Source of the DNA: an uncultured Acidobacteriota bacterium
GTDB taxonomy: Bacteria > Acidobacteriota > Polarisedimenticolia > Polarisedimenticolales > DASRJG01
Length of the DNA: 64,000 nt
Direction: 5' to 3'
Assembly (NCBI GenBank): GCA_964383585.1
Contig: CAYLHQ010000012.1
Coordinates: 36,714 to 100,713 of the forward strand
The position numbers and the translations under genes are program-made. The notes under the pieces were generated by a model that was not told the DNA's origin, ran no database searches, and was given only the letters and a program-made list of their open reading frames with translations. Below, piece by piece: positions 1,590 to 63,159 of this stretch (position 1 is its first letter; each line of letters opens with the position of its first letter).

Positions 1590-1775
1590 ATGGATCCGGA
1601 GGCGCCCCTCGAGCCCGACCCCGTCATCGAGGCCTACAAGGCGCACGTGGACCGGACCCTCCTCCGCGAGAACCTGAAGCGCAGCGTCGCCGAGCGGCTC
1701 GCGAACTTCCTGGAGCTGCAGCGCCTCGCGGAAGAGGCCAGGCGCGCGGGCGAGAGGGCGCGGGGCGGGCGGTGA
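1590..1775 (+). CDS. small helical protein, putative antitoxin-like partner of the downstream nucleotidyltransferase
   Basis: ATG at 1590 is preceded by GGGAGGG. The 61-aa product is charged and helical (...VIEAYKAHVDRTLLRENLKRSVAERLANFLELQRLAEEARRAG). Its stop TGA 1773-1775 overlaps GTG 1772 of the next ORF (GTGA coupling). Confidence 0.5.
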   Translation: MDPEAPLEPDPVIEAYKAHVDRTLLRENLKRSVAERLANFLELQRLAEEARRAGERARGGR

Positions 1776-1930
1776 CCGACTTCGCCGGTTTGATCGGCGC
1801 CCTCGCGAACGGTCGGGTGGAATTCCTGATCGTCGGCGGCCTGGCGGCCATCGTGCACGGCTCGGCGCGCATGACGCAGGACATCGACGTCGTGTACTCC
1901 CGGGCCCCCGAGAACGTGAAGAGGCTCGTG

Positions 1931-1942
1931 GAGGCCCTCACG
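1931..1942. repeat. left copy of the 12-bp direct repeat (putative target-site duplication) GAGGCCCTCACG
   Basis: Identical 12-mer at 1931-1942 and 2142-2153. Both copies are in frame with the respective gene halves (E-A-L-T). Confidence 0.75.
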
Positions 1943-2141
1943 ACGTGACGCGAATCGTGGGGACGGGAGGATCGAGGGACGCCACCGAAGTTGCGGTGGG
2001 ATCTGGGGATTCCCTTTCCGCGCCGATCGGAAGCCCAGGGCTCGCGACTTCGCGGCACGGGCTTCGCGATGGAACTCTCGGACCCACCGCAACTTCGGCC
2101 CCATGCACGGCGCGAGTCCTCCCCACCGTTCGCACCACCTT
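1943..2141 (+). mobile_element. MITE-like non-autonomous element, copy A (199 bp, no ORF)
   Basis: Flanked by the 12-bp direct repeat. The ends form imperfect inverted repeats: left ACGTGACGCGAATCGTGGGGACGGGAGGA versus the reverse complement of the right end, AAGGTGGTGCGAACGGTGGGGAGGA. There is a perfect 16-bp internal stem (1985-2000 pairs with 2083-2098). The element is homologous to 51897-52096. Confidence 0.6.
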
Positions 2142-2153
2142 GAGGCCCTCACG
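2142..2153. repeat. right copy of the 12-bp direct repeat GAGGCCCTCACG
   Basis: See the entry for 1931-1942. Confidence 0.75.
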
Positions 2154-2525
2154 CCCTTCGCGCCCTATCTGCGCGGCGCGCCCGCCGGGCTTCCGTTCGA
2201 ATGGTCCGTTTCGACGGTGCTTCGTGGACTCAACTTCACCCTGACGACTAGGCTCGGCGACATCGACCTTCTCGGCGAGCTTACCGGCGGGGGAACGTAC
2301 GAGGACCTCGAAGGATCGACGCTCGGCGTCGAGCTCTTCGGGTGTCGGTGCCGTTGCCTCGATCTCGACACGCTCATCCGGGTCAAGCGAGCGGGGGGCA
2401 GGCCGCGTGATCTGGAAGCCGTCGCGGAGTTGGAGGCGCTGGCGGAGGAGAGAAGGCGCCTCGGCGGGACCTGACCCCGACAGGGACCTGTCGCATATCC
2501 CACACCCGCCGTCCGAGACGGAACA

Positions 2526-5119: not shown

Positions 5120-8100
5120 TCGAGCGGATCATCGACTTCTCCGCGCGGCACCGCCTCCTGGTGCTGATGCTGACGGTCGTCGCCGTTCTGTTCGCGGTGC
5201 GCGCGATGCGCGAGGTCCCGCTCGACGCGATCCCCGATCTCTCGGACACCCAGGTCATCGTCTTCTCGAAGTGGGACCGTAGCCCCGACATCGTCGAAGA
5301 CCAGGTGACGTACCCCATCGTCACCTCCCTCCTCGGAGCGCCGGGCGTCAAGTCGATCCGTGGCTTTTCGGATTACGGCTTCTCCTACGTCTACGTGATC
5401 TTCGACGACGGGACCGACCCCTACTGGGCGCGGAGCCGGGTGCTCGAGTACCTGAGCGAGATCCTCCCGCGGCTTCCCGCAGGGGTGACGACGGAGCTGG
5501 GGCCGGACGCGACGGGGGTCGGCTGGGTTTACCAGTACGCGCTCGTCGACCCCGAAGGCCGCCACGACCCGGCAGACCTGCGATCCTTTCAGGACTGGAC
5601 GCTCCGGTACTGGCTCCAGGGTGTGGAAGGGGTCGCCGAGATCGCGTCGTTCGGCGGGTATCAGAGGCAATACCAGATCACGCTCCGTCCCGAAGCGCTC
5701 CTCGCGCGGAACGTCACCGTACCGCAGGTCGTCGAGGCGATCCGGAAGGGGAACGACGAGGTCGGGGCGCGGGTGCTCGAGCTTTCCGGCGCGGAGTACA
5801 TGGTGCGGGCGCGGGGGTACGCGCGATCGATCGAGGACTTCGAGAACCTCGTCGTGACCGCGGACGCTCGGGGGGTCCCCGTCCTCGTGCGCGACGTCGC
5901 GCGGGTCGGCGTGGGTCCCGACATGCGACGAGGGATCGGCGACCTCGACGGACGGGGGGACGTCGCGGGAGGGATCGTCGTCATGCGCCACGGGGAGAAC
6001 GCGCTCCGCGTGATCGAGCGCGTGAAGGCGAGGCTCGACGACGTGCGAGGCTCGCTTCCCGAGGGGGTGGAGATCGTCGCGACCTACGACCGGTCGGAGT
6101 TGATCGAGCGCTCGATCGACGTGCTGAAGAAGGAGCTGATCCTGGCGATGGTCGTCGTGAGCCTGGTCGTGCTCCTCTTCCTGTGGCACGTCCCTTCCGC
6201 GATCGTCCCGATCGTCACGATCCCGGTCTCGGTCTGCCTCGCCTTCATCCCGATGTGGGGGATGGGGATCACCTCGAACATCATGTCGCTCGCGGGGATC
6301 GCGATCTCGATCGGGGTCCTCGTTGACGGCGCGATCATCGAGGTCGAGAACGCCTACAACAAGATCCACCGGTGGCAGGCCGCTGGAGGGAAGGGGGACT
6401 TCCACGAGGTGCGCCTGGAGGCGCTCAAGGAGGTCGGGCCGGCGGTCTTCTTTTCCCTCCTCGTCATCACCGTGTCGTTCCTTCCGGTCTTCACCCTCGT
6501 CGATCAGGAAGGGCGGTTGTTCAAGCCGCTCGCCTACACGAAGACGCTGACGATGGCCCTCGCCGCGGTCCTCGCGACCACGCTCGACCCCGCGATGCGC
6601 ATGCTCTTCGCGCGGATCGAGCCGTTCCGGTTCCGGCCGCGAGTCCTGTCGAAGGCCGCGAGCGGTTTGTTCGTCGGGCGGTACCGCGCCGAGGAGGATC
6701 ACCCGATCAGCCGGCGGCTGATTCGGTGGTACGAGCCCGTCTGCCGCCTGGTCCTCGACTGGCCGAGGGCGACGATCGCGATCGCTCTCGCCCTTCTGCT
6801 GTCGACGATACCGGTGTACTTCTCCCTGGGCTCCGAGTTCATGCCTCCGCTCGACGAGGGGACGCTCCTGTACATGCCGACGACCCTCCCCGGGATTTCC
6901 GTCGCGGAAGCCGCGGCCATGCTCGAAGAGACGGGACGGCTCATCGCCGAGGTGCCCGAGGTCGCGAGCGTTCACGGGAAGGCGGGACGCGCCGATTCGG
7001 CGACCGACCCGGCGCCGTTGTCGATGATCGAGACGGTCGTCGTCTTGAAGCCGCGCTCGGAGTGGAGGTCGGTCGAGCGGTTCTACTCCGGCTTTCCGGA
7101 TTGGATGAAGGCCCCGTTCCGGCTCGTCTGGCGAGACCGGATTTCCCGAGAGGAGTTGGTCGCCGACCTCGACCGGCGCGTCCGCCTTCCGGGCGTCACC
7201 AATTCGTGGACGATGCCGATTCGCACGCGGATCGACATGCTGACGACGGGGATCCGGACGCCCGTCGGAATCAAGATCCTAGGACCGGACCTCGGTGAGA
7301 TCGAGCGGCTCGGCTCGGAGATCGAGTCGGTCGTCGCCGGGCTGAGCGGCACGCGAAGCGTCTTTGCCGAAAGGACCGCCGGCGGGTACTTCCTCGACTT
7401 CGACCTGAAGCGTGAGGCCCTCGCGAGGTACGGAATCGCCGTCGCGGACGCGCAGATGGTCCTGATGGCCGCCGTCGGGGGCGAGACGGTGACCACGACG
7501 ATCGAGGGGCGCGAGCGCTACACGGTGAGCGTCCAGTATCCGAGAGAACTGCGCGACAACGTCGAGGCGCTACGACGGGTGCTGGTCCCGGCCTCATCCG
7601 GTGTGCAGATCCCTCTCGAGCAGATCGCCGATCTCCGCTTCTCGACGGGCCCCGGGATGATCCGGAACGAGAACGGCCTCCTCGCGGGGTACGTTTACGT
7701 CGACATCTCGGAGTCCAACGTCGGCGGGTACGTGGCCCGTGCGAAGGAAGCGGTCGCGCAGGCGGTGTCGTTCCCTCCGGGCTATACCGCCGTCTGGAGC
7801 GGGCAGTACGAGAACATGCTGCGGGTGCGGGAGCGCCTGAAGCTCGTGATCCCGCTCACCTTGTTCCTCATCTTCCTCATTCTCTACATGAACACGCGCT
7901 CGGTGGTGAAGACGGGCATCGTCCTCCTCGCGGTTCCCTTCTCCCTCGTCGGTGCCGTCTGGTTCCTGTGGCTTCTCGACTACAACGTCTCGATCGCCGT
8001 CTGGGTGGGGATGATCGCCCTCATGGGCCTCGACGCGGAGACGGGCGTCTTCATGCTCCTCTTCCTCGATCTGTCGTACGAGCAGGCGGTGCGCGAGGGA

Positions 8101-8409
8101 AGGATGCGGAACCACCACGACCTTCGGGAGGCGATCGTCCACGGGGCCGTGAAGCGGATCCGGCCGAAGATGATGACCGTCCTCGCCGCCTTCGTGGGTC
8201 TCCTCCCGATCATGCTCTCCCAGGGGACCGGCTCCGACATGATGAAGCGCGTCGTCGCGCCGATGATCGGCGGCCTCGTCACGTCGTTCGTGCTGGAACT
8301 ACTCGTCTACCCGCCGCTCTACGAGATGTGGAAGCGGCAAAGGGGACATTCCGGTTTTTCTTTCCATTCTTCAAGCAGCGGTGAACCTCAGATCGCCGGG
8401 GCGCCTTGA
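5116..8409 (+). CDS. cusA: CusA/CzcA-family heavy-metal RND efflux pump
   Basis: The product reads co-linearly with E. coli CusA as I recall it: MIERIIDFS...DAIPDLSDTQVIVFSKW...DPYWARSRVLEYL...LGPDATGVGWVYQYAL...EGTLLYMPTTLPGIS. The last ~22 aa (RGHSGFSFHSSSSGEPQIAGAP) are encoded by the palindromic repeat at 8341-8439. Confidence 0.92.
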   Translation: MIERIIDFSARHRLLVLMLTVVAVLFAVRAMREVPLDAIPDLSDTQVIVFSKWDRSPDIVEDQVTYPIVTSLLGAPGVKSIRGFSDYGFSYVYVIFDDGTDPYWARSRVLEYLSEILPRLPAGVTTELGPDATGVGWVYQYALVDPEGRHDPADLRSFQDWTLRYWLQGVEGVAEIASFGGYQRQYQITLRPEALLARNVTVPQVVEAIRKGNDEVGARVLELSGAEYMVRARGYARSIEDFENLVVTADARGVPVLVRDVARVGVGPDMRRGIGDLDGRGDVAGGIVVMRHGENALRVIERVKARLDDVRGSLPEGVEIVATYDRSELIERSIDVLKKELILAMVVVSLVVLLFLWHVPSAIVPIVTIPVSVCLAFIPMWGMGITSNIMSLAGIAISIGVLVDGAIIEVENAYNKIHRWQAAGGKGDFHEVRLEALKEVGPAVFFSLLVITVSFLPVFTLVDQEGRLFKPLAYTKTLTMALAAVLATTLDPAMRMLFARIEPFRFRPRVLSKAASGLFVGRYRAEEDHPISRRLIRWYEPVCRLVLDWPRATIAIALALLLSTIPVYFSLGSEFMPPLDEGTLLYMPTTLPGISVAEAAAMLEETGRLIAEVPEVASVHGKAGRADSATDPAPLSMIETVVVLKPRSEWRSVERFYSGFPDWMKAPFRLVWRDRISREELVADLDRRVRLPGVTNSWTMPIRTRIDMLTTGIRTPVGIKILGPDLGEIERLGSEIESVVAGLSGTRSVFAERTAGGYFLDFDLKREALARYGIAVADAQMVLMAAVGGETVTTTIEGRERYTVSVQYPRELRDNVEALRRVLVPASSGVQIPLEQIADLRFSTGPGMIRNENGLLAGYVYVDISESNVGGYVARAKEAVAQAVSFPPGYTAVWSGQYENMLRVRERLKLVIPLTLFLIFLILYMNTRSVVKTGIVLLAVPFSLVGAVWFLWLLDYNVSIAVWVGMIALMGLDAETGVFMLLFLDLSYEQAVREGRMRNHHDLREAIVHGAVKRIRPKMMTVLAAFVGLLPIMLSQGTGSDMMKRVVAPMIGGLVTSFVLELLVYPPLYEMWKRQRGHSGFSFHSSSSGEPQIAGAP

Positions 8410-8439
8410 AGTATTGGAACAAAAAGCGGAATGTCCCCT
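8341..8439. repeat. AT-rich imperfect palindrome, AGGGGACATTCCG(C/G)TTTTT family; likely hairpin/terminator
   Basis: The left arm AGGGGACATTCCGGTTTTTCTTTCCATTCTTCAAG (8341-8375) pairs with the reverse complement of 8405-8439, AGGGGACATTCCGCTTTTTGTTCCAATACTTCAAG. The first 22 nt of the reverse complement of the right arm (AGGGGACATTCCGCTTTTTGTT) are identical to the outer arms of the 46778-46952 palindrome; the left arm has two substitutions in that stretch. Confidence 0.7.
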
Positions 8440-21814: not shown

Positions 21815-21948
21815 GCGTGATGTTCATCCTCCTCCCGGCCTCCCTGCTCTTCGCCCTGGGCGCGGTCCTCGTGTTCCTTTGGGCGGCCCGCTCCGGGCAG
21901 TACGACGACGTCGAGACCCCCGCCTCCCGCATCCTCGATGATGAATAG
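21811..21948 (+). CDS. ccoS: cbb3 oxidase maturation protein CcoS/FixS
   Basis: GTG 21811 overlaps the ccoI stop (GTGA). The translation (V)SVMFILLPASLLFALGAVLVFLWAARSGQYDDVETPASRILDDE matches the CcoS pattern. Confidence 0.7.
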   Translation: MSVMFILLPASLLFALGAVLVFLWAARSGQYDDVETPASRILDDE

Positions 21949-22010
21949 GGGACAGGTTACTCGTTTGTCGCAAAAAGGGACTTCTTGCGACAAATGAGTA
22001 ACCTGTCCCC
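21948..22010. repeat. palindrome GGGGACAGGTTACTCGTTTGTCGCAA / TTGCGACAAATGAGTAACCTGTCCCC (hairpin directly after ccoS)
   Basis: 26-bp arms (21948-21973 and 21985-22010) with one mismatch and an 11-nt loop. It starts on the last base of the ccoS stop codon. It shares the GGGGACA start with the other palindromes, and no U-tract follows it. Confidence 0.65.
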
Positions 22011-39629: not shown

Positions 39630-40439
39630 GTGCCCGAGACCACGTACAACGCGACGCTGATCGGCCGCGAAGACCTCCACGCGCACCTTCGGATCTTCCG
39701 AGTCCGTCCGGACGCCGACCTCTTCGACTTCGAGCCGGGGCAGTACTCGGTTCTCGGCCTCCTCGGCGGCGAGCCGAGGGTCCCCGAGGCAGACCCCGAA
39801 GAGCCTCCGCCTCCCGCCGGCGCGATGATCCGGCGCGCCTACAGCATCGCATCGTCGAGCCTCGAGCGCGGTTACGTCGAGTTCTTCGTGAACCTCGTGA
39901 CGAGCGGAAGCCTCACCCCACGTCTCTTCGCGCTGCCTCGCGGCGGGCGGATCTGGCTCGGGCCGAAGGCGACGGGGATGTTCACGCTCGACCGGGTGTC
40001 GCCGGGGCGGGCGGTCGTGCTCGTCGCGACGGGAACGGGGCTCGCTCCGTACGTCTCGATGCTGAGGACCATGCTCGTGCGCGAAACGGCGCGGCGGTTC
40101 GTCGTCCTGCACGGGGCGCGCTACTCGTGGGACCTCGGATATCGCGGAGAGCTCGAAAGCCTCTCGAGGCTTCGCACGAACCTCACCTACATCCCGTCGA
40201 TCACGCGGCCCGAGCGCGATCCTCACTTCACCGGCGCCGTGGGGCGCGTGCAAGCGCTCCTCGACCAGGGGATCGTCGAGAAGGAGACGGGTGTTCTTCT
40301 CGACCCCGCGCGGACCGAGGTCTTCCTCTGCGGAAACCCGGACATGATCCGGGACGCGAAGGCGATGCTCGTCGGGCGCGGCTTCGTCCCCGACAAGGGG
40401 CGCGAGGCGGGAACGCTGCACGTCGAGGAATATTGGTAG
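39630..40439 (+). CDS. ferredoxin-NADP(+) reductase (Fpr-type)
   Basis: GTG 39630 follows GGAGGAGGG. FAD-binding motif RRAYSIAS and NAD(P)-binding motif VVLVATGTGLAPY are present. The C-terminus ...HVEEYW is typical of bacterial subclass I FNR. Confidence 0.8.
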   Translation: MPETTYNATLIGREDLHAHLRIFRVRPDADLFDFEPGQYSVLGLLGGEPRVPEADPEEPPPPAGAMIRRAYSIASSSLERGYVEFFVNLVTSGSLTPRLFALPRGGRIWLGPKATGMFTLDRVSPGRAVVLVATGTGLAPYVSMLRTMLVRETARRFVVLHGARYSWDLGYRGELESLSRLRTNLTYIPSITRPERDPHFTGAVGRVQALLDQGIVEKETGVLLDPARTEVFLCGNPDMIRDAKAMLVGRGFVPDKGREAGTLHVEEYW

Positions 40440-40440
40440 G

Positions 40441-40526
40441 AAAAGGGGACTGGCACCTTTTCCGGTCGCCGGAAAAGGTGCCAGTCCCCTTTTTCACACC
40501 GGAAAAAGTGCCAGTCCCCTTTTTCA
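40441..40526. repeat. AT-rich perfect palindrome (GGGGACTGGCACCTTTTCC family) plus a tandem extra half-copy; likely bidirectional terminator
   Basis: AAAAGGGGACTGGCACCTTTTCCGG (40441-40465) pairs with CCGGAAAAGGTGCCAGTCCCCTTTT (40469-40493). A second right-arm copy, CCGGAAAAAGTGCCAGTCCCCTTTTT, lies at 40499-40524. The element lies in the ~100-bp gap between the convergent stops of fpr (40439) and the TonB-dependent receptor (40539). Confidence 0.75.
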
Positions 40527-40538
40527 CAGTCCCCATTC

Positions 40539-42687: not shown

Positions 42688-43161
42688 TCAGGAAGGTGGG
42701 GCGCGGGGAGATCGGTGGAGGGCGAGCGGGACGCCACCCGGCCGAAACAGAACCGTCGGAGTTGCAATCGAGAGTGGGCGTTCCGGAGGCGTGGCCCCCG
42801 TGTCCTCGAAGCCGGATTCTCCCGGGGGCGCCGCGCCCGGAAGGAAGCGTGCGGACTTGCGGGGGTCGTCCCGGTCTGCGGGGGGCGACCAGGGATCGGG
42901 CCTCCCCTCGTCGAAGCCGCCGCGATCGGCGTGAGTGTGACCGGCGCCTCCGTGCTCATGGAACCCGAGATGGAGGTGGTCGTGGACGACGTGCGCGGAG
43001 CCGTTCCGGTGATGGTGGGGACGATCTTCACCCGTTGCACCCAGCCAGAAGAGACAAACGAACCCGAGCAAACCCGAGACGCTCCGCTCGGGGAAAAAAT
43101 GGGGACTGGCACCTTTTCCGAAGACCCTCCCGGAAAAGGTGCCAGTCCCCATTTCTCTCAT
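42688..43161 (-). CDS. hypothetical His-rich protein (start uncertain)
   Basis: The ORF has high GC3 by eye. It encodes a hydrophobic segment (LLGFVCLFWLGATG) followed by HHHRNGSAHVVHDHLHLGFHEHGGAGHTH. ATG 43161 overlaps the upstream stop (ATGA) but would put the 43099-43152 palindrome inside the coding region. The next in-frame start is TTG 43071. Confidence 0.35.
   Translation of the reverse strand: MREMGTGTFSGRVFGKGASPHFFPERSVSGLLGFVCLFWLGATGEDRPHHHRNGSAHVVHDHLHLGFHEHGGAGHTHADRGGFDEGRPDPWSPPADRDDPRKSARFLPGAAPPGESGFEDTGATPPERPLSIATPTVLFRPGGVPLALHRSPRAPPS
43099..43152. repeat. perfect palindrome of the GGGGACTGGCACCTTTTCC family
   Basis: ATGGGGACTGGCACCTTTTCCG (43099-43120) pairs perfectly with CGGAAAAGGTGCCAGTCCCCAT (43131-43152). 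It starts 6 nt downstream of the sulfatase-like gene stop. Confidence 0.75.
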
Positions 43162-45336: not shown

Positions 45337-46779
45337 ATGGAAATCTTGGCGGTCCTTCTCCTCGTCGTCTCGGCGATCATCCTGTTCGCCACCGAAGCGC
45401 TGCGCGTGGACGTGGTGGCGATCCTCATCCTGGTGGCCCTCGCCCTCTCCGGTCTCATCGCTCCCGAGGAGGCGCTTTCCGGGTTCTCCAATCCCGCGAC
45501 GGCAACCGTCGCCGCGATGTTCGTCCTCTCCGCCGGACTCCGTCACACCGGGCTCGTGGACGCCTTCGCGGACGGGGTCGATGCGCTGCTCGGCCGGAGC
45601 GCGATTCTCGTGACGCTCGGTCTCATGATCGCCGTCGGTCTCGTCTCCGCGTTCATCAACAACACGGCTGCAGTCGCGGTCCTGATCCCGATCGTGATCG
45701 GACTTTGCAGGCGCCATGCCTGGTCCCCGTCCCGCTTCCTGATGCCCCTCTCGTTCATGGGGCAGATCGGCGGCGTGTGCACCCTCGTCGGGACCTCGAC
45801 GAACATCCTCGTCTCGGACATCGCGCGGCGGTCCGGGATGGAACCGTTCGGGATGTTCGAGTTCTCCGCGCTCGGCCTTTGCTTCGCCGGCGTTGGCTTC
45901 GTGTACCTCGCCCTGGTGCCGTCGTTGCTGCTCCGGAGGAACGGCGACGCCCCTCCGCAGCCGCTCGCGGCCCGCTACGAGCTGGGCCAGTACCTCACCG
46001 AGATCGAAGTGGGACCGGATTCCGAGCTCGTCGGACAGCGGCTCGCCGACACACAGATCGGTGAACGCCTCGGCCTCGAGGTCCTCGAAGTGATCCGGGG
46101 AGGGAGACCGGTCTGGATTCCCGCTCCGGAACAGGGTCTCGAGGCAGGCGACGTGCTCGTCGCGCGTGCTCCGATCTCGAACCTTCTCGACGCCCAGCAG
46201 GCGATGGGGCTCCGCTTCAAGCGGAACATCGAGATGAGCGAGTCGCGACTGCAGGGTTCGGGAGTCGTCCTCGTCGAGGCGCTGGTCGCGCCGGATTCTC
46301 GACTTGTCGGGAAGACGCTCCAGGAGGCCCAGTTCCGGAGGAGGTACCGCTGCCAGGCAATCGCGATCCGCCACCACGACCGGCTCGAGGCCGGAACGAT
46401 CGGGAAGGTCCGGCTCGCGGTCGGCGACGTCCTGCTGCTTCAGGGGTACCGCCGGGACATCGAGGCGCTCGCCGCCGGTCTCGCAGTGTTGACTCTCGAG
46501 GAGATCGCGGCGCCCGAGGTCCCATGGCTCAACAAGGGGCTCGCCGTCGGCGCAATCTCGGGAGCCGTCGCGTTCGCGACGCTCGGCGTGGCGCCGATCC
46601 TCGTGACCGCCATGGCAGCCGCCGCGTTCCTCGTCATCGCGCGCGTGCTGACGATCGAGCAGGCCTACCAGGCGATCGATTGGAAGGTGATCTTCCTCCT
46701 CGCCGGGGTGATCCCTCTCGGGATCGCGCTCGAGAGCAACGGGGCGGCCGGGCTCCTCTCTCGGGGGGTGATGTTTTAG
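45337..46779 (+). CDS. SLC13/DASS-family permease with two TrkA-C domains, apparently C-terminally truncated
   Basis: The N-terminal transport half is ~205 aa, followed by two TrkA-C-like domains (...GQRLADTQIGERLGLEVLEVIRGG..., ...GKTLQEAQFRRRYRCQAIAIRHHD...). Only ~90 aa of the second transport half remain before TAG 46777-79, which sits on the first bases of the 175-bp palindrome. Confidence 0.75.
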   Translation: MEILAVLLLVVSAIILFATEALRVDVVAILILVALALSGLIAPEEALSGFSNPATATVAAMFVLSAGLRHTGLVDAFADGVDALLGRSAILVTLGLMIAVGLVSAFINNTAAVAVLIPIVIGLCRRHAWSPSRFLMPLSFMGQIGGVCTLVGTSTNILVSDIARRSGMEPFGMFEFSALGLCFAGVGFVYLALVPSLLLRRNGDAPPQPLAARYELGQYLTEIEVGPDSELVGQRLADTQIGERLGLEVLEVIRGGRPVWIPAPEQGLEAGDVLVARAPISNLLDAQQAMGLRFKRNIEMSESRLQGSGVVLVEALVAPDSRLVGKTLQEAQFRRRYRCQAIAIRHHDRLEAGTIGKVRLAVGDVLLLQGYRRDIEALAAGLAVLTLEEIAAPEVPWLNKGLAVGAISGAVAFATLGVAPILVTAMAAAAFLVIARVLTIEQAYQAIDWKVIFLLAGVIPLGIALESNGAAGLLSRGVMF

Positions 46780-46952
46780 GGGACATTCCGCTTTTTGTTT
46801 CAGAAACGATAGGGGGGGAAGGGAAAAAGGGGACAGGCACCTTTTCGGGAGAACCTTGCGAAATGAACGCAGCGGCCCTCCCCGAAAAGGTGCCTGTCCC
46901 CTTTTTCCCTTCCCCCCCTATCGTTTCTGAAACAAAAAGCGGAATGTCCCCT
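46778..46952. repeat. ~175-bp composite near-perfect palindrome (both repeat families nested); bidirectional terminator-like
   Basis: The left arm 46778-46850 (AGGGGACATTCCGCTTTTTGTTTCAGAAACGATAGGGGGGGAAGGGAAAAAGGGGACAGGCACCTTTTCGGGAG) is the reverse complement of 46879-46952 apart from one position near the loop. It spans exactly from the permease stop to the ilvE stop. Confidence 0.8.
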
Positions 46953-47832
46953 AAACGGCGACGTACTCGACCTTGACGCCGTCCCGCACGCGCAGGCGGC
47001 GGAAGTCGTCGAGGAGTCGCTTCGTCACGGGCCCGGGCACTCCCGCTCCCACACGGCGTCCGTCCACCGCGATCACGGGGACGATCTCAGCGCCGGTGCC
47101 GGTCATGAAGACCTCCTCGGCGTTGTAGAGATCATGCAACCCCACCACGGTCTCGGCGGTCTTGAAGCCGGCGTCGCGCGCGAGCTCGAGCACCGCGCCT
47201 CGCGTGATCCCCGAAAGCGCCCCCTGCATGGTGTCGGGGGTCTTGACCCAGCCGTCGCTCACGAAGAAGAGGTTGTCGGCGGTGCACTCCGCCACGTACC
47301 CCTGATGGTTGAGCATGATCGCCTCGAGCGCTCCCGACCGCTTGGCGTCGAGCTTGCCGAGGATGTTGTTCAGGTAGTTCAGGGACTTGATCCGCGGGTC
47401 GATCGAGTCGTTCGGGATCCGTCGCACGCTCGCCGTCACGAGCGCGATCCCCTTCTCGTAGAACTCCTTCGGGTAAAGCGCGATCTCGGCGACGATGATC
47501 ACGATGGTCGGCCGCTTGCACTTCGCCGGGTCGATCCCGAGATCCCCGTCTCCACGCGAGACCACGAGCCGGATGTACGCATCCCTCTTCTCGTTGGCGG
47601 CGACGGTGTCGCAGACGGCAGCCGTCATCTCCTCGGGGCTCAGGGGGATCTCGAGCGCGATCGTCTTCGCCGACCGGTACAGACGGTCGATGTGTTCCTT
47701 CAGCCGGAAGACGTTCCCGTCGTAGACCCGGATTCCTTCGAACACGCCGTCCCCGTACAGGAACCCGTGGTCGAACACGGAGACCTTGGCGTCCTCCCTC
47801 GCGTACAGCTTGCCGTCGACGTAGATCTTCAC
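46951..47832 (-). CDS. ilvE: branched-chain amino acid aminotransferase (class IV)
   Basis: (V)KIYVDGKLYAREDAKVSVFDHGFLYGDGVFEGIRVY...IKSLNYLNNILGK... are IlvE signatures. GTG 47832 follows GAGGAGG. Confidence 0.9.
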   Translation of the reverse strand: MKIYVDGKLYAREDAKVSVFDHGFLYGDGVFEGIRVYDGNVFRLKEHIDRLYRSAKTIALEIPLSPEEMTAAVCDTVAANEKRDAYIRLVVSRGDGDLGIDPAKCKRPTIVIIVAEIALYPKEFYEKGIALVTASVRRIPNDSIDPRIKSLNYLNNILGKLDAKRSGALEAIMLNHQGYVAECTADNLFFVSDGWVKTPDTMQGALSGITRGAVLELARDAGFKTAETVVGLHDLYNAEEVFMTGTGAEIVPVIAVDGRRVGAGVPGPVTKRLLDDFRRLRVRDGVKVEYVAV

Positions 47833-50969: not shown

Positions 50970-51848
50970 TTATGGTCCAATGACGAGGAGGGAGAGAGCG
51001 ACCACCGTTACCAGCGGAAAGAAGTACCACTCCGCGTGCTTCAGGGCGTGCCGCCACCGCGGCGAGTCGGTGCTCTCCCGGAAGACGGTCGCCGCGAGGA
51101 CGATCGCCCCCGCCATGCCGAAGATCGCGACAGCCCTCTCGTCGATCGACGCCAGGACGCCGAAGACAATGCCGTTCACGAGGTGCGGTCGCGCCAGGCG
51201 GCCGCGGTAGAGGATGAGGTTCGACAGGACCGGAACGGCGAACAGAGCGAGGAGCCCGAGTTGCCAAAGATCGGGCGGGTGGCTCTGCCATTCCGGGGAT
51301 CCGCCTCTCCAGGGAGCCGCCGCCGACACCGCAAGTGCGGCCGATCCCGAGAAGCCGACCAGCCAGGCAAGGCGCTTTCGAAGACCGGGCGCGTCGGGAC
51401 GGGGTTCGAGCAGGTAGGCGGCCGCGAAAAGGAAGGCGAGCGGCCAGAACGGACTCGTCCACGCGAATCCCCCCAGGATCGCCGGGAGGGCGAAGATCCT
51501 TCCCCGCCGTTTCTCGAGGTAGCCCTCCATCGCCCAGGCGCTGGCCCCGAAAAGGGCGTACGGGAGAACCCAGACGAGTTCCGTCACGGCCGTCACGGCG
51601 AGGGCTGCGGCGGCGAAGAGCAGGAACGAGGTCACGAGGTGGTCTCGTGTCTTCTTCTTGAGGCCCATGAAGAGGAAGAACGTTCCGGCGGTGGCGAGCG
51701 CCGACTGCGTCCAATGCGGAACCCCTCGAAAATCGACGAGCCATAGGAGAAGGAAGACGGAGCCCATCCCCACGTACTCCATCTTCAACTTGCGGCCGAC
51801 CCGCTCGATCGCGTCGGGGCGGTAGTCTCGCGGAACGAACGTCTCCAT
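50970..51848 (-). CDS. polytopic membrane protein of unknown function
   Basis: ATG 51848 follows GGGGAGG. The product has about 8 hydrophobic segments, and I recognise no family. Confidence 0.6.
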   Translation of the reverse strand: METFVPRDYRPDAIERVGRKLKMEYVGMGSVFLLLWLVDFRGVPHWTQSALATAGTFFLFMGLKKKTRDHLVTSFLLFAAAALAVTAVTELVWVLPYALFGASAWAMEGYLEKRRGRIFALPAILGGFAWTSPFWPLAFLFAAAYLLEPRPDAPGLRKRLAWLVGFSGSAALAVSAAAPWRGGSPEWQSHPPDLWQLGLLALFAVPVLSNLILYRGRLARPHLVNGIVFGVLASIDERAVAIFGMAGAIVLAATVFRESTDSPRWRHALKHAEWYFFPLVTVVALSLLVIGP

Positions 51849-51896
51849 GGTGCCTCCCCGGATGGTCCGGCGACCGGATTCTACGATGCGGGGGGC

Positions 51897-52096
51897 AAGG
51901 TGGCGCGAAGGGGGGGGGAGGACTCGCGCCGCGTACGAGGCCGAAGTTGCGGCGGGACCTAGGGTTCTCCGCTCCGCGCCGAAGGGAGCGTTCCCCTCGT
52001 GACTCCGCGTCACGGGCGTTCCGATGGAACTCCAAGACTCGCGGCAGCTTCCGCTCCCCATGCGGGTGCAGCGATCCCCACGATCCGGACCACGTT
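51897..52096 (+). mobile_element. MITE-like element, copy B (diverged, intergenic)
   Basis: It aligns in the same orientation over essentially its whole length with 1943-2141. Shared strings include CCGAAGTTGCGG, TCCGCGCCGA, CACGGGC, GATGGAACTC and CCCCATGC. Its left end AAGGTGGCGCGAAGGGGGGGGGAGGACTCGCG matches the terminal repeat of copy A. I estimate identity at about 70% by eye. Confidence 0.5.
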
Positions 52097-52198
52097 GCGG
52101 CGGCCGGACGGAAGGGAAACGCCGCCTCGACCTCGCCCTCCGGGCCGACCCCGCTCTCGGGGAGGCCGGGGCGGCTGCGCGAGCGCACCGGCCGCGGC

Positions 52199-52204
52199 TA
52201 GAAT
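52199..52204 (+). promoter_or_regulatory. candidate -10 box TAGAAT upstream of the cyclophilin gene
   Basis: This is the only AT-rich hexamer in the GC-rich spacer, 36 nt upstream of ATG 52241. The -35 region is weak. Confidence 0.25.
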
Positions 52205-52240: not shown

Positions 52241-52912
52241 ATGAGAACCGTCGCAGGCATCGTGGCGCTCGCCGTGTTCGCGGCCCTTCCGGCCGCGGCG
52301 GCCGACGCCCAGAAGGCTCCGGCCAAGAAAGGGGAGATCGCCATCCAACAGATCGACCAGCAGATCGCAGGCGTCAAGATCGACAAGTCCGACGCTCGTT
52401 GGAAGACACGGCTCCCGAAGCCGCAGAAGGTCGCGTTCGACGCGGCGACCAAGTACTACGCCCGCATGGAGACGAACAAGGGTCCGGTCAAGATCGAGCT
52501 CATGCCCGACGTCGCCCCCATGCACGTCACGAGCTTCATTTACCTCTCGCGCCTCGGGTTCTACGACGGCCTCTCGTTCCACCGCGTGATCCCCGGCTTC
52601 ATGGCGCAGGGGGGCTGCCCGCTCGGCACGGGAACCGGAGGGCCCGGGTACGAGTACGGCGGCGAGTTCTCCCCCTCGGTCAAGCACGACGTTCCCGGGC
52701 TCCTCTCGATGGCGAACGCCGGACCGGGCACCGACGGGAGCCAGTTCTTCCTGACGTTCGTCCCGACGCCCTGGCTCGACGGGAAGCACACGATCTACGG
52801 GAAGGTCGTCGAGGGGATGGACACCCTGAAGAAGCTCGAGGCCGCGGGCTCGCAGAGCGGCCGGACCACCGAGCCTCTGAAGATCGAGAAGGTCACGATC
52901 GAAGTGAACTGA
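52241..52912 (+). CDS. secreted peptidyl-prolyl cis-trans isomerase (cyclophilin type)
   Basis: Signal peptide MRTVAGIVALAVFAALPAAAA. Cyclophilin signatures are FHRVIPGFMAQGG...GGPGY...MANAGPGTDGSQFF. Confidence 0.9.
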   Translation: MRTVAGIVALAVFAALPAAAADAQKAPAKKGEIAIQQIDQQIAGVKIDKSDARWKTRLPKPQKVAFDAATKYYARMETNKGPVKIELMPDVAPMHVTSFIYLSRLGFYDGLSFHRVIPGFMAQGGCPLGTGTGGPGYEYGGEFSPSVKHDVPGLLSMANAGPGTDGSQFFLTFVPTPWLDGKHTIYGKVVEGMDTLKKLEAAGSQSGRTTEPLKIEKVTIEVN

Positions 52913-53381
52913 TCCGGAAGGGACGCGCGAGCTCGTCGAGGACCGCCTCGACGATCGCCTCGAAACGCTCGCGGAGGCGCGGGCCCAGTTCGAGCGAGAA
53001 GCGGTCGAGGAACTCCGGCACGACGCCCACGATCCGGACTTCCGGCGCGGGGTCGAGCGCGAGCGCGGCCCGGATCAGCTCTCCGAGGTCCGATCCATGC
53101 GCGGAGGAGGGGTGGGGAAGGAAGCCCGCCACCTCCTCCGCGGGAATTCGGTAGATCGCCCCCGCCTCCGCGCGCGTCCGGATCGCGTCGACCAGGATCA
53201 CCCGCTCCTTCCCCCGAAACCACGGGAGCAGCTCGAAACCGGTCGTTCCTCCGTCGAGCACCTCGACCCCTTCGCCGAGCGCTCTCGCGCGAAGTGCGCG
53301 CGCGACGTGCACCCCGATCCCCTCGTCGCCGAGAAGCTCGTTCCCGACGCCGACGACGAGGGTGTGCGCGTGCCCGGTCAC
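52893..53381 (-). CDS. [NiFe] hydrogenase maturation endopeptidase (HyaD/HybD/HoxM family)
   Basis: GTG 53381 overlaps the large-subunit stop (GTGA). The sequence reads LVVGVGNELLGDEGIGVHVA...DGGTTG...VILVDA. Its 3' end overlaps the convergent cyclophilin gene by 20 nt. Confidence 0.8.
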   Translation of the reverse strand: MTGHAHTLVVGVGNELLGDEGIGVHVARALRARALGEGVEVLDGGTTGFELLPWFRGKERVILVDAIRTRAEAGAIYRIPAEEVAGFLPHPSSAHGSDLGELIRAALALDPAPEVRIVGVVPEFLDRFSLELGPRLRERFEAIVEAVLDELARPFRISSLRS

Positions 53382-54868
53382 CGCACCCGGAACTCCCGGA
53401 CCGGCCTCCCGGGCTCGAGCACGTGGACCGCGCACGCGAGACAGGGATCGAACGACCGTACGATCCGGGCGAGGGGGAAGGGATTCTTCGGATCGGCGAC
53501 CGCGGTCCCGATCATCGCCTGCTCGATCGGTCCGGGCTTGCCGGCATCGTCGCGCGGGGAGGCGTTCCAGGTGGTCGGCACGACCGCCTGGTAGCGCGCG
53601 ATCACCCCGTTCCGGATCTCGATCCAGTGTCCGAGGGCCCCCCGAGCGGCGCACCAGAGGCCCATCCCGCGCGCCTCTTTCGGGATCTTGTGCTCGTTGC
53701 AGACCGGATCGTCGAGCTTCACCTCCATGACCATTGCGGTCAGCTCGTCCGCGATCACCTTGCACTCCACGGCACGCGCGAGGTGGCGTCCCATCACCGA
53801 GCAGAGGTCCCCGAGCTCGACGTCGAGCGTCGTCATGCACTCGTCGAGGAGTTTGACGACCTTCGGGTTCGATTTCGTGCGGTAGGCCAGCATCATCCGC
53901 GCGAGCGGCCCCACCTCGTAGGCGGACCCGTCGTAGCGGGGCGCCTTGAGCCAGCTGTACCCCCCCTTCTTGTCCGGGTTCGGGCTCGTCTCGCCCTCCG
54001 CCGGATGGAGCCCGCTCGGCGAGTCGTACCAGGACGAGGCGACGTCCTCGGCGATCTTCGCGGGATCGACCGGGCCCGGAACTCCCCCGGTCAACCGTCC
54101 CATCGGGAAGAATCGCTTCCGCTTCAGGACGTCGGGCTCGTCGTCGAGATCGAACAACCCGAACGAGAGGAAGTTCCCGCAGCCCTTCCCGAGCTGGAAG
54201 TGGTCCCGGTAGACCTGGGCGATCGTCAGCACGTCGGGAAGGTAGACGTTGTCGATGAAGTCGGTGAGTTCCTTGAGCCGCCACACCGAAGTCGTGACGT
54301 TGTCGAGCCGCGGGACGATCGTCACGCCGCCCGGGGCGAGCGAGGCCATGTGCGGCATCTTCCCCGACCAGATCGAGCACAGCTCGTGGGCCTTCAATCG
54401 GGCCTGGTAGGCCTGGATGTAGTGATCGATGAGCGCCTCGCGGACCGCGCGCGGCACCCGGTAGTCGGCCTCGTACCGCGGAACGAAAGGCGGCATGTCG
54501 GGCCCCTCGAAGTAGTCGAGGGCCGAGAGGTGGTAGAAGTGCAGCACGTGGGATTGGATGTAGTTCGCCCCCTGCATGAGGTTCCGGATCACGCGGCCGT
54601 TTCTCGGCGGCATGATGCCGAAGGCGTTTTCGAGGGCCTGGGAGGACGCGATGCCGTGGGGCGTCGGGCAGACGCCGCAGAACCGCTGCGAGATCTGGAT
54701 CGCGTCGAGCGGGTTGCGGCCGATGAGGATCTGCTCGAATCCGCGGTAGAGCGTCCCCTCGCACCGCGCGTCGACGACCTTCCCCTCCTCGACGGACGCC
54801 TCGATCTTGAGGTGCCCTTCGATGCGCGTCATCGGGTCGATGGAGACCTTGGTGGTGGACGTGCTCAC
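53378..54868 (-). CDS. [NiFe] hydrogenase large subunit
   Basis: The N-terminal Ni-binding region is RIEGH...QRFCGVCPTPH. The C-terminal region DPCLACAVH is followed by a 15-aa extension (protease substrate). The product is 496 aa. Confidence 0.92.
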   Translation of the reverse strand: MSTSTTKVSIDPMTRIEGHLKIEASVEEGKVVDARCEGTLYRGFEQILIGRNPLDAIQISQRFCGVCPTPHGIASSQALENAFGIMPPRNGRVIRNLMQGANYIQSHVLHFYHLSALDYFEGPDMPPFVPRYEADYRVPRAVREALIDHYIQAYQARLKAHELCSIWSGKMPHMASLAPGGVTIVPRLDNVTTSVWRLKELTDFIDNVYLPDVLTIAQVYRDHFQLGKGCGNFLSFGLFDLDDEPDVLKRKRFFPMGRLTGGVPGPVDPAKIAEDVASSWYDSPSGLHPAEGETSPNPDKKGGYSWLKAPRYDGSAYEVGPLARMMLAYRTKSNPKVVKLLDECMTTLDVELGDLCSVMGRHLARAVECKVIADELTAMVMEVKLDDPVCNEHKIPKEARGMGLWCAARGALGHWIEIRNGVIARYQAVVPTTWNASPRDDAGKPGPIEQAMIGTAVADPKNPFPLARIVRSFDPCLACAVHVLEPGRPVREFRVR

Positions 54869-54874
54869 GGCGGG

Positions 54875-55828
54875 TCACCTCCTCTGGTAGATGGGCGAGT
54901 GGGCGTCGGGGAACCCCTTCTCGGTGCAGCCGATGCAGGGGGCGTTCGCCCCGATGCACCAGTTCACGCTTCCGTTCCAACGGCGGATCGGACAGTCGGC
55001 GTTCGTGAACGGACCCTTGCAGCCGAGTTCGAGGAGGCACCCCTCCTCGCCGAACTTGGTCGCGAAGACGCCGTCGTCGAGGTAATCGCGATAGATGCAT
55101 CGGGCGTGCACCGAACGGCCGAAGAAGAGCTTGAGCCGGCCCTGTTCATCGAGCTCCTCCGGCTTCGGAAGGCCGTAGAGGAGGATCTTGGCGACCGTCC
55201 CGATGAACCAGTCCGGATGGCAGGGGCAGCCGGGGATGTTCACGACGGGGGTCTTGATCGCGCGGAGCGCGAAGAAGTCGGAAAGTCCCATGCACCCCGT
55301 CGGGTTGGGCGCCGCGGCGGGGAGACCTCCGTAGGCCGCGCAGGTGCCGACGGTGAGCGCCGCCAGGGCCTTCCGGCCGAAGCGGTCGATCCACTCCTGC
55401 ATCGGGACCGGCGTTCCTCCCTCGGACCCGATGTGACCGTACGCACCGTTCGCCTTGGTCGGGATCGCCCCCTCGACGATCAGCACGAACTTGCCCGCGT
55501 GGGTTTCGACCGCCTTCTTCGCCGCGTCGAGCGAGATCGAGCCGGTCGCCGCCATCAGCGTCCCGTGGTAGTTGACGATGAGGCGGTGGCCGGGAAGGAC
55601 CTGCTCGAGGATGACGTTTTTGATGCTCGGGTGGATCGTGTTGATGACCGAGACGGAACAGCCGCTGCACGCCGAGGCTTGGAGCCAGACGATCGGGTAC
55701 TCCCTGACCGCCCCCTCGAGCGCGAAGGCGAGGCGGCCGAGGAACTCCTCGGCCACCGCAGCGGCGACCGGGGCGGCGACGGCCCAGCGCACGAACTCCC
55801 TCCGTGAGATCCCGCGGGCGCGGCTCAT
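54875..55828 (-). CDS. [NiFe] hydrogenase small subunit with a twin-arginine signal peptide
   Basis: ATG 55828 follows GGAAGGAGG. The Tat motif is SRREFV. Fe-S cluster ligand motifs are CSGCSVS, GTCAAYGG, PGCPCHPDW, CLLELGCKGPFTNADCP and WCIGANAPCIGC. There is no C-terminal hydrophobic anchor. Confidence 0.9.
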   Translation of the reverse strand: MSRARGISRREFVRWAVAAPVAAAVAEEFLGRLAFALEGAVREYPIVWLQASACSGCSVSVINTIHPSIKNVILEQVLPGHRLIVNYHGTLMAATGSISLDAAKKAVETHAGKFVLIVEGAIPTKANGAYGHIGSEGGTPVPMQEWIDRFGRKALAALTVGTCAAYGGLPAAAPNPTGCMGLSDFFALRAIKTPVVNIPGCPCHPDWFIGTVAKILLYGLPKPEELDEQGRLKLFFGRSVHARCIYRDYLDDGVFATKFGEEGCLLELGCKGPFTNADCPIRRWNGSVNWCIGANAPCIGCTEKGFPDAHSPIYQRR

Positions 55829-56050
55829 CGAGGCCTCCTTCCTGTCGAGATTCTCGGCACCGGCGTTGAAAATCCCCACACCCCACCCTTTCGCTCCGCA
55901 AATCCGAGGAACGGAAAAGCGGCGCTCTCATGGACCTTTCGCCCGGCCGTCGTTCCGAGAGTTCCGGCGTCCGGTCCTCGGGAGGGGTTTGGAGGCAATC
56001 CCGATGCCCGGCGGTGGGGGGTGCGGAGCGGCCCGGCGAGCGCGCGGCGG

Positions 56051-62097: not shown

Positions 62098-62792
62098 GCG
62101 TCTTCCTCGTCACCGGGGCGGCGCGCGGGCTCGGCCTCGAGATGGTCCGGCAACTTCTCGAGTCGGGGCACAGGGTCGTTGCCTGCCCCCGTCGCGCCGA
62201 GTCGTGCGGCCTCGACGCCCTTTCGGTCGCCCACGCGTCGGCGCTCTGGATCGTCCCCATGGACGTGACCGACGGGCCCTCGGTGCGGGAGGCGGCACGC
62301 CGGGTCTCGTCGCGCGTTCCCCACCTCGACGTGCTGGTCAACAACGCCGGGGTTCTCCATCGCGGAGAACCTTCGGTCGAGGCGCTCGATTTCTCGGGTC
62401 TCGAAGATGCCTACCGCGTGAACGCCCTCGGGGCGCTCCGCGTCACGGCGGGGTTCCTCCCCCTCCTCCGGAAGGGAGCGGGCAAGAGGATCGTCAACGT
62501 CTCGTCGCTCATGGGCTCGATCGAGGACAATGCGAGCGGCGGCGCCTACGGGTACCGGATGTCCAAGGCGGCGCTCAACATCGCGACGAAGAATCTCGCG
62601 ATCGAGTTGAAGGGCGATGGGTTCGTCGTCGTTGCGATGCACCCGGGGTGGGTCCGCACACGGATGGGAGGGGAACGGGCGCCGCTCGACATCGAGCCCG
62701 CCGTCCGGGAGCTGCTGGCGACCGCCCTCTCGGCCGGACCCGACCGGAGCGGCGGGTTCTACGGCCCGGGAGGAACGAGGTTGCGTTGGTAA
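62094..62792 (+). CDS. short-chain dehydrogenase/reductase (CsgA/C-factor-like subgroup)
   Basis: GTGA overlap with the previous SDR. Motifs are VFLVTGAARGLGLEMVRQL, NNAG and YRMSKAALN. Confidence 0.8.
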   Translation: MSVFLVTGAARGLGLEMVRQLLESGHRVVACPRRAESCGLDALSVAHASALWIVPMDVTDGPSVREAARRVSSRVPHLDVLVNNAGVLHRGEPSVEALDFSGLEDAYRVNALGALRVTAGFLPLLRKGAGKRIVNVSSLMGSIEDNASGGAYGYRMSKAALNIATKNLAIELKGDGFVVVAMHPGWVRTRMGGERAPLDIEPAVRELLATALSAGPDRSGGFYGPGGTRLRW

Positions 62793-62848
62793 GAAAAGGG
62801 GACTGGCACCTTTTCACGGCTGTGAAAAGGTGCCAGTCCCCTTTTCTT
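62791..62848. repeat. perfect 27-bp-arm palindrome of the GGGGACTGGCACCTTTTC family; bidirectional terminator-like
   Basis: AAGAAAAGGGGACTGGCACCTTTTCAC (62791-62817) pairs with GTGAAAAGGTGCCAGTCCCCTTTTCTT (62822-62848) around a 4-nt loop. It fills the entire gap between the convergent stop codons (TAA 62790-92 and TGA complement 62848-50). Confidence 0.8.
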
Positions 62849-63159
62849 CAATACCCGCCGCGGCCGTAGCCGCCGCCGCCGCCCCTGCGGCCGCCACCGC
62901 CACCGCCCTCACGCTCGCGCGCCTCGTTGACGGTCAGCGGACGGCCTCCGTAGTTCGTGCCGTTCAGCGAACGAATCGCCGCGTCGGCCTCGTCCTGACT
63001 CCCCATGTCGACGAAGCCGAACCCGCGCGGCCGGCCGGTGTCGCGGTCGGTGATCAGCTTCACCTCGCGCACCGTACGGCCGTCCTGGGCGAAGAGCGCC
63101 CGAACGTCGTCTTCGGTCGCGTTGAAGGGGAGGTTGCCGACGTAGAGTCTCGTACCCAT
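62848..63159 (-). CDS. RRM-type RNA-binding protein with a Gly/Arg-rich tail
   Basis: MGTRLYVGNLPF (RNP-2) ... RGFGFVDM (RNP-1) ... GGGGGGRRGGGGGYGRGGY. ATG 63159 was chosen because AGGAG lies 9 nt upstream. Confidence 0.85.
   Translation of the reverse strand: MGTRLYVGNLPFNATEDDVRALFAQDGRTVREVKLITDRDTGRPRGFGFVDMGSQDEADAAIRSLNGTNYGGRPLTVNEAREREGGGGGGRRGGGGGYGRGGY

Follow-up and report, generated by a model that had tools for sequence, protein, structure and literature searches.

The locus of copy B

A stretch of 64,000 nucleotides from an uncultured Acidobacteriota bacterium (hereafter the window; G+C content 69%; part of a 275-kb contig) contains two copies of a repeated element of about 200 bp. 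Copy A lies at 1943-2141 on the plus strand and copy B at 51897-52096. Copy B is likewise assigned to the plus strand, since its centre runs in the same direction as that of copy A. To the left of copy B is a called gene for a 292-aa membrane protein with no Pfam domain (50970-51848, minus strand), and to its right is a called cyclophilin (Pro_isomerase) gene (52241-52912, plus strand). An earlier reading of the letters alone (hereafter the sequence-only reading) had placed copy B between these two divergent genes, and this placement is confirmed.

The arrangement of the window at this locus is carried by three contigs. Comparison with six contigs of relatives (L085-L090), in which the membrane protein is 84-85% identical, revealed a different arrangement. 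In all six, a gene for a 747-aa PMT_2/TPR glycosyltransferase occurs between the membrane-protein and cyclophilin genes, on the strand of the latter, reading towards it from 38 bp upstream, and the element is absent at the locus. The sequence-only reading had proposed to compare orthologous intergenic regions for presence or absence of the element. The element is absent from the six contigs, and copy B is not a simple insertion, as these contigs have a gene at this place.

The homology with the relatives breaks exactly at both ends of copy B. The window up to 51896 aligns to L090 from 9964 upwards, while from 52097 on its counterpart in L090 starts at 7722 and runs downwards, within the 3' end of the PMT_2 gene (L090 7619-9862). 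The element of 200 bp thus replaces 2,241 bp. With this segment went almost all of the PMT_2/TPR gene and, from the ancestral region between the divergent genes, about 100 bp with a TATAAC stretch before the PMT_2 gene. What is left of this gene, as identified by alignment to L090, is its 3' end at 52097-52201 (plus strand; the last ~35 codons, ...RRLDLALRADP..., with a TAG stop), and the presence of this remnant in the window argues against the PMT_2 gene being a later insertion in the relatives. On the other side of copy B, 48 bp of the ancestral upstream region of the membrane-protein gene are retained (51849-51896, minus strand), aligning to L085 and L090 up to the element. They contain a GGGGAGG ribosome-binding site and, at 13 nt from the element end, a TAGAAT that is conserved (reverse complement of 51878-51883). 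Of the new facts in this study, the most useful is the precise 2.24-kb gene deletion that is marked by copy B. For genome evolution, it represents a case, resolved to the base pair, of such an element at the junction of a gene deletion that took the divergent promoter region with it.

A degenerate repeat at the flanks of copy B (TGCGGGGGGC versus TGCGGCGGCC) had been pointed out in the sequence-only reading. The match exists (8 of 10 positions), and together with the divergence of copy B, which is far greater than that of the other copies, it could be taken to indicate a simple old insertion in the promoter region that decayed in place, with TGCGGGGGGC and TGCGGCGGCC as a worn target-site duplication. 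This explanation is hardly credible. The flanks of copy B are two ancestral sequences that lie 2,241 bp apart in the relatives, on either side of the gene missing from the window, and hence the flanking repeat is not a target-site duplication. Furthermore, the non-coding gene remnant beside copy B is still ~90% identical to the relatives, which makes decay in place to 60-65% unlikely. Considering that copy B shows 59-65% pairwise identity to the four other full copies read as DNA (A, C, D and E, described below), it is most likely, judging from these sequence comparisons, that copy B derives from a diverged subfamily.

The PMT_2/TPR gene was most likely deleted by one of two routes. Recombination between two element copies flanking the segment would remove the DNA between them; alternatively, an adjacent deletion linked to transposition would do so. 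Either route would leave one copy without matching flanking duplications, as observed at copy B.

Loss of this segment has consequences for the upstream regions of both flanking genes. The membrane-protein gene has 48 bp of native upstream DNA left, and anything further, including any -35 region, is element sequence. The cyclophilin gene has lost its upstream gene together with the TATAAC-containing region, and the TAGAAT found before it stems from the stop codon (TAG) of the deleted gene followed by AAT. Scans for sigma-70-type promoters and terminators in copies A and B and in the relatives' intergenic region gave nothing useful. Transcription of the membrane-protein and cyclophilin genes may depend on sequences in or beside the element. 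As copy B replaced the ancestral promoter region, the suggestion in the sequence-only reading that it could supply or disturb the promoters of its neighbours is reasonable, and more pointed than could be known at that time.

A second difference in gene presence was observed at this locus. A NiFe-hydrogenase cluster (small subunit, large subunit and HycI protease) is located beside the cyclophilin gene in the window (52893-55900) and in the relative L085. The relative L090 is without this cluster (6600-7600), and there dodecin is followed directly by the cyclophilin gene.

Copies of the element and their termini

Comparison of copies A and B by blastn revealed similarity in both orientations: a direct match of 159 nt (72% identity, E 3e-15) and an inverted match of 71 nt (83% identity, E 3e-15). 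The blocks CCGAAGTTGCGG, TCCGCGCCGA, CACGGGC, GATGGAACTC and CCCCATGC, listed earlier as common to both copies, were found in A and B. The earlier statement that the two copies align in the same orientation across the whole element is correct for the arms and the centre, where a centre profile matches copy B on the plus strand (E 1.7e-10), but not for the termini, which are inverted. The first 60 nt of copy B agree at 52 of 60 positions with the reverse complement of the family right end and at 45 of 60 with the family left end. At its right terminus, the reverse complement of the final 43 nt corresponds to the left-end module found in the other copies (E 2e-4 with a left-end profile). Likewise, the terminus GGTGG(Y)GCGAA...GGGGAGGA is present in both copies as claimed, although it forms the left end of copy B on the plus strand and the right end of copy A on the minus strand.

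The left terminal part of copy B (51897-51958) is a module of ~60 nt, named the R-module, which was identified with a profile (E 8e-15) and which corresponds, in reverse complement, to the right end of the four other copies (A, C, D and E). In copy B it comprises the terminal repeat, a subterminal hairpin (GGCGCGA...TCGCGCC) and the left arm of a long internal stem. The R-module is the best conserved part in all copies (AAGGTGGYGCGAA..GGGGAGGACTCGCGCCG....GGCCGAAGTTGCGGYGGG). The coordinates given in the sequence-only reading proved to be the true ends of both copies, copy A lying exactly between two 12-bp repeats and copy B between its homology breakpoints with the relatives.

Copy A is a young copy with a near-perfect hairpin and is located inside a gene. 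Its target-site duplication, GAGGCCCTCACG, is read at 1931-1942 on the left and at 2142-2153 on the right and is perfect (12/12). The gene split by this copy encodes a DUF6036/AbiEii-like nucleotidyltransferase (1772-2474, plus strand), with the N-terminal part at 1772-1948 and the C-terminal part extending to 2474. Gene callers reported it as two pieces, a 58-aa N-terminal piece with a weak DUF6036 match and a 123-aa C-terminal piece (2103-2474). Excision in silico of copy A and one duplication gave a 163-aa ORF in which the DUF6036 match (residues 13-72) crosses the junction. DUF6036/AbiEii-like nucleotidyltransferases are the kind of toxin found in Abi and type IV toxin-antitoxin systems. 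Copy A has thus inactivated a putative toxin gene. A 61-aa ORF (1587-1772) precedes and overlaps the split gene.

Further copies were found by protein search with the six-frame translation of copy A, followed by an exhaustive phmmer search with one of the matches as query. In total, five full copies and one fragment were read as DNA, all at unrelated loci: copies A and B in the window; copies C and D and the fragment on L084, another contig of the window's metagenome (JGI 3300043177); and copy E on L091, from a second metagenome. Pairwise identity among A, C, D and E is 81-96%, copy A being 96% identical to D and 91% to C. Copy C (L084:1036-1233, minus strand) lies in-frame within a membrane-protein gene and has a target duplication of 10 bp, GAGCGACCCG (10/12). 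Copy D (L084:10251-10449, plus strand) is intergenic with no visible target duplication, and copy E (L091:10098-10297, minus strand) has a weak one (7/9).

The fragment (L084:~307-348) is a solitary left end that begins with AACGTGACGCGAATCGTGGGGAT. Its subterminal sequence (AACGTG..., GGGGAT-GC) is closer to the right end of copy B than to the left end of the A type. To judge from this likeness, it is possibly a remnant of a B-type subfamily. No second B-type copy was found apart from this possible B-like left end, and a six-frame translation of copy B gave no match as protein query. The B-like fragment and the termini of copy B, which differ in kind from those of copy A, both fit the origin of copy B from a diverged subfamily.

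At least six further copies are visible solely through spurious ORFs, namely in P0001 (three tandem copies), P0003, P0081 and P0082. The spurious ORFs that run through copies have no significant Pfam domain. In P0002, another ORF from the protein search, the element lies in-frame within a membrane-protein gene, which is the context of copy C. The three tandem copies in P0001 have a period of 70 aa, i.e. 210 nt (198 bp and a 12-nt spacer). The spacers are exactly four codons long, the last one being identical to the flank downstream (RARR). P0080 contains three tandem units of 98 aa (294-nt period) and represents a related, longer element that has only the end module of ~60 nt in common with the present one. 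P0001 and P0080 are NCBI-sourced proteins, and these arrays were read as protein sequence. Head-to-tail arrays of at least three copies point either to successive insertions into the duplicated target or to amplification via the flanking direct repeats. For annotation, these arrays are of value as examples of repeats that gene callers turned into spurious 'proteins'.

The ORF of P0081, from another genome, begins inside an element copy and runs into a membrane protein whose match to PMT_2 is weak and below threshold. This ORF was tested as an element-interrupted ortholog of the PMT_2 gene deleted at copy B and is not the ortholog.

In the three A-type copies from the window's metagenome (A, at window 2142, C and D), GAG follows directly on the right end, and GAG likewise opens the duplications of A and C. 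A target preference may be reflected here (n=3). The copy A locus was also assembled independently (L083:1-28, a Logan contig of SRR12686701), and this assembly stops 28 nt into the element, possibly because it broke at a multi-copy repeat. As 2 nt of the final 30-mer belong to the flank, however, this contig end is not conclusive.

The similarity between A and B might have been limited to these two loci, as expected of chance or a segmental duplication, and the 64-kb window does contain just two copies; a two-sequence profile of A and B found no third match within it. We give this explanation practically no probability in view of the blastn E value of 3e-15 and of the copies on other contigs and in another metagenome, which have different flanks and duplications of their own. 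The check on similarity confined to two loci, which the sequence-only reading had named, is answered by the copies on L084 and L091. Copy B was correctly described there as a second, diverged copy of a repeated element, and this element is mobile, given its copies at unrelated loci with target duplications.

Classification of the element

Analysis of the copies revealed an element that is short and non-coding. Its length is 198-200 bp, and its six-frame translations match only spurious ORFs through other copies. The family ends are AAGGTGGYGCGAA...GGGGAGGAC and (R)CGTGACGCGAATCGTGGGGA. Imperfect terminal inverted repeats of ~21 bp were identified, with the left (R)CGTGACGCGAATCGTGGGGA agreeing with the reverse complement of the right (A)AGGTGGYGCGAACGGTGGGGA at ~16-17 of 21 positions by hand count, and these repeats pair in the fold (helix 1). 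Target duplications were found for A (12/12), C (10/12) and E (7/9), and in P0001 as 12-nt spacers that equal the flank; none was found for B and D. The copies A-E and the fragment occur in different contexts, and the element is absent from the relatives' loci.

Four of five MITE features were thus found (small size without coding capacity, terminal inverted repeats, target duplication and multiple unrelated sites). Taken together with the disruption of a gene, these features identify a non-autonomous transposon of the MITE type. An autonomous partner, i.e. a transposase gene with the same terminal repeats, was not found by the terminal-repeat scans, which gave only chance matches. A scan of genome contigs with the pattern CCGAAGTTGCGGN{18,40}TCCGCGCCGA gave 42 matches and a scan of viral contigs with the 16-mer CCGAAGTTGCGGYGGG gave 36, all by chance; the terminal-repeat pattern gave two chance matches among metagenome contigs, in a collection that evidently lacks the source metagenome. 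Plasmid and phage databases contained no match to the element by blastn, and no further terminal repeats were found in the ~0.88 Mb of DNA examined. Overall, our analysis indicates with high probability that copy B is a member of a non-autonomous MITE-type family of ~198-200 bp, located at the junction of a 2,241-bp deletion, and that its palindrome is a DNA-level feature. With five DNA copies, the copy number, the target preference and the duplication length (9-12 bp) of this family are poorly sampled.

A target duplication of ~12 bp, about one helical turn, implies staggered cuts by a DDE-type transposase, and such an enzyme, supplied in trans, would mobilise the element. A different mode of movement would apply to a REP/BIME-like element or a palindromic element of the IS200/IS605 type (PATE), which is moved as single-stranded DNA by a tyrosine (Y1/RAYT) transposase. 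The strong hairpin, together with the 7-bp subterminal hairpin (GGCGCGA...TCGCGCC) in the conserved end module, would fit this mode, as would the tandem arrays and the tolerance of G-T pairs on one strand, which suits a single-stranded DNA intermediate too. However, elements of this kind insert without target duplication, and here duplications were found at A (12 bp) and C (10/12) and as the 12-nt spacers of the array; moreover, a length of ~200 bp with terminal inverted repeats is not REP-like. We regard movement by a Y1/RAYT transposase as highly improbable, and since the element makes target duplications it is not classified with REP/BIME or IS200/IS605-type elements.

Well-known bacterial MITEs include the Correia elements of Neisseria, ERIC/IRU of enterobacteria, RUP of Streptococcus pneumoniae and MIC231 of Bacillus cereus. 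The present element resembles them in its length of ~200 bp, its non-coding nature, its terminal inverted repeats, its largely palindromic body and its target-site duplication, and also in having many dispersed copies that are intergenic and occasionally inside genes and are linked to rearrangements. Prokaryotic MITEs have been the subject of surveys (PMC11602168). The sequence of the element is unrelated to any family searched (no Rfam, plasmid or phage match). It also differs from these MITEs in its long duplication of ~12 bp and in its head-to-tail arrays with 12-nt spacers, the arrays being a mildly unusual trait.

The IS4 family has a DDE transposase with a YREK motif. Target duplications in this family are about 10 bp long, roughly one helical turn, and its ends read 5'-CAT or more generally 5'-NA/NT (PMC2266710). 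The duplications of the present element (10-12 bp) are in the range of the IS4 family, a likeness in duplication length alone. The ends of the element, which read AAGGTG... and (A/G)CGTGACG..., differ from the CAT of the IS4 family.

Insertion into protein-coding genes in-frame is a property of the Rickettsia palindromic elements (RPE). Copy C resembles them, as its 198 bp and the 12-bp duplication make up 70 codons that are in-frame with a membrane-protein ORF and leave it open. Copy C was found by a search based on ORFs, which favours open frames, and thus this likeness to RPE is subject to ascertainment bias. Five of the six frames of copy A are without a stop codon; when compared with shuffled sequences, this depletion of stop codons was not significant as a sign of in-frame adaptation. 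Unlike RPE, copy A disrupts its host gene. Results from this study constitute a description of a previously undescribed MITE family from an uncultured lineage, whose members split genes and insert in-frame in ORFs.

Folding and strand bias of the element

The long internal stem of copy B consists of a left arm, CCGAAGTTGCGGCGGG (51941-51956, plus strand; helix 4), and a right arm, CTCGCGGCAGCTTCCG (52038-52053, plus strand), both read from the sequence. The sequence-only reading had counted 14 of the 16 positions as pairing, and this count was reproduced with the 16-nt arms (12 Watson-Crick pairs, two G-U pairs and two mismatches). It had gone on to propose that the stem is under selection as RNA, with the plus strand of the element giving rise to a structured RNA, either an sRNA or a cis-acting hairpin. 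We consider this proposal unlikely, and the selection it postulates did not emerge from the tests described below.

Folding of copy B is no better than that of shuffled sequences on either strand (z +0.42 and -0.06). Copy A folds into a hairpin of nearly full length on both strands (-104 and -106 kcal/mol, z about -4), as is expected of a DNA palindrome. In four of the five copies (B, C, D and E), folding of the plus strand is better than that of the minus strand, which speaks for an RNA. No promoter-like or terminator-like site was found within the element, and Rfam gave no match at the gathering threshold, the best match up to E 10 being a plant miRNA hairpin (E 1.4). Copies occur in both orientations relative to host genes, which also argues against an RNA.

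Covariation was analysed with the five DNA copies aligned on the structure of copy A, a sample of low power. In this alignment, 89.2% of cells pair in comparison to 87.8% in shuffles (15 of 500 shuffles reach the observed value), and four double-sided pair changes were found in comparison to 1.8 in shuffles (43 of 500). The three or four compensatory pairs would be in favour of a conserved RNA stem. However, the covariation values lie within the shuffle and slide controls and, by the tool's calibration, within the range of related sequences without structural constraint, and the covariation term of RNAalifold is +2.68, a positive value being a penalty.

The claim that the wobble pairs of the stem work only for an RNA read from the plus strand was tested with three structures. 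With the plus-strand fold of copy A as the structure, derived changes on a single side of the stem gave 18 G-T pairs (wobble on the plus strand) and five A-C pairs (wobble on the minus strand), an excess in the claimed direction (p = 0.011). The excess is not robust and weakens with the two other structures: 18 versus 8 with a structure derived from the minus strand (p = 0.076) and 32 versus 22 with a strand-neutral self-alignment of each copy (p = 0.22). Under the plus-strand fold, C>T changes outnumber G>A changes in paired columns (14 versus 6), as compared with 3 versus 7 in unpaired columns (Fisher p = 0.056), which is again in the direction expected of a plus-strand RNA. This wobble bias is a hint, not evidence, and a single-stranded DNA intermediate explains it equally well.

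Conservation of the left stem arm is sufficiently explained by its location in the terminal module of ~60 nt, which is conserved across subfamilies. Overall, the mobile-element part of the sequence-only reading is supported by our analysis, while the part on RNA selection is not. The palindrome belongs to the ends and interior of the transposon at the level of DNA, with no solid evidence of a selected RNA, and on present evidence the element is an ordinary selfish element.

The mild plus-strand bias and the better folding of the plus strand nevertheless leave some room for a strand-specific constraint. In a broader form of this idea, folding of the element as a single strand in its plus orientation would be under constraint, be it in an RNA or in a single-stranded DNA intermediate of transposition, and copy B would have been retained at the deletion junction because it drives or shapes expression of the two flanking genes, whose ancestral promoter region is gone. 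We judge this unlikely. If true, a transposon-borne structured module would be spreading a functional hairpin through an acidobacterial genome, such as a signal for mRNA processing or stability or a regulatory unit that fires outwards. Should the weak strand bias hold true across many copies, the family would become a candidate for a mobile structure of RNA or single-stranded DNA.

The window also contains a second repeat family that is unrelated to the element. It consists of short, AT-richer palindromic repeats with the motifs GAAAAGGGGAC(T/A)GGCACCTTTTC and AGGGGACATTCCGCTTTTTGTTNCA, and it looks REP/BIME-like. These repeats were observed at 8341-8439, 21948-22010, 40433-40528, 43089-43159, 46775-46955 and 62786-62850 of the window and at L084:10556-10580. 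Nesting of both motifs at 46775-46955 gives a 181-bp structure in which arms of 75 nt show 100% complementarity.
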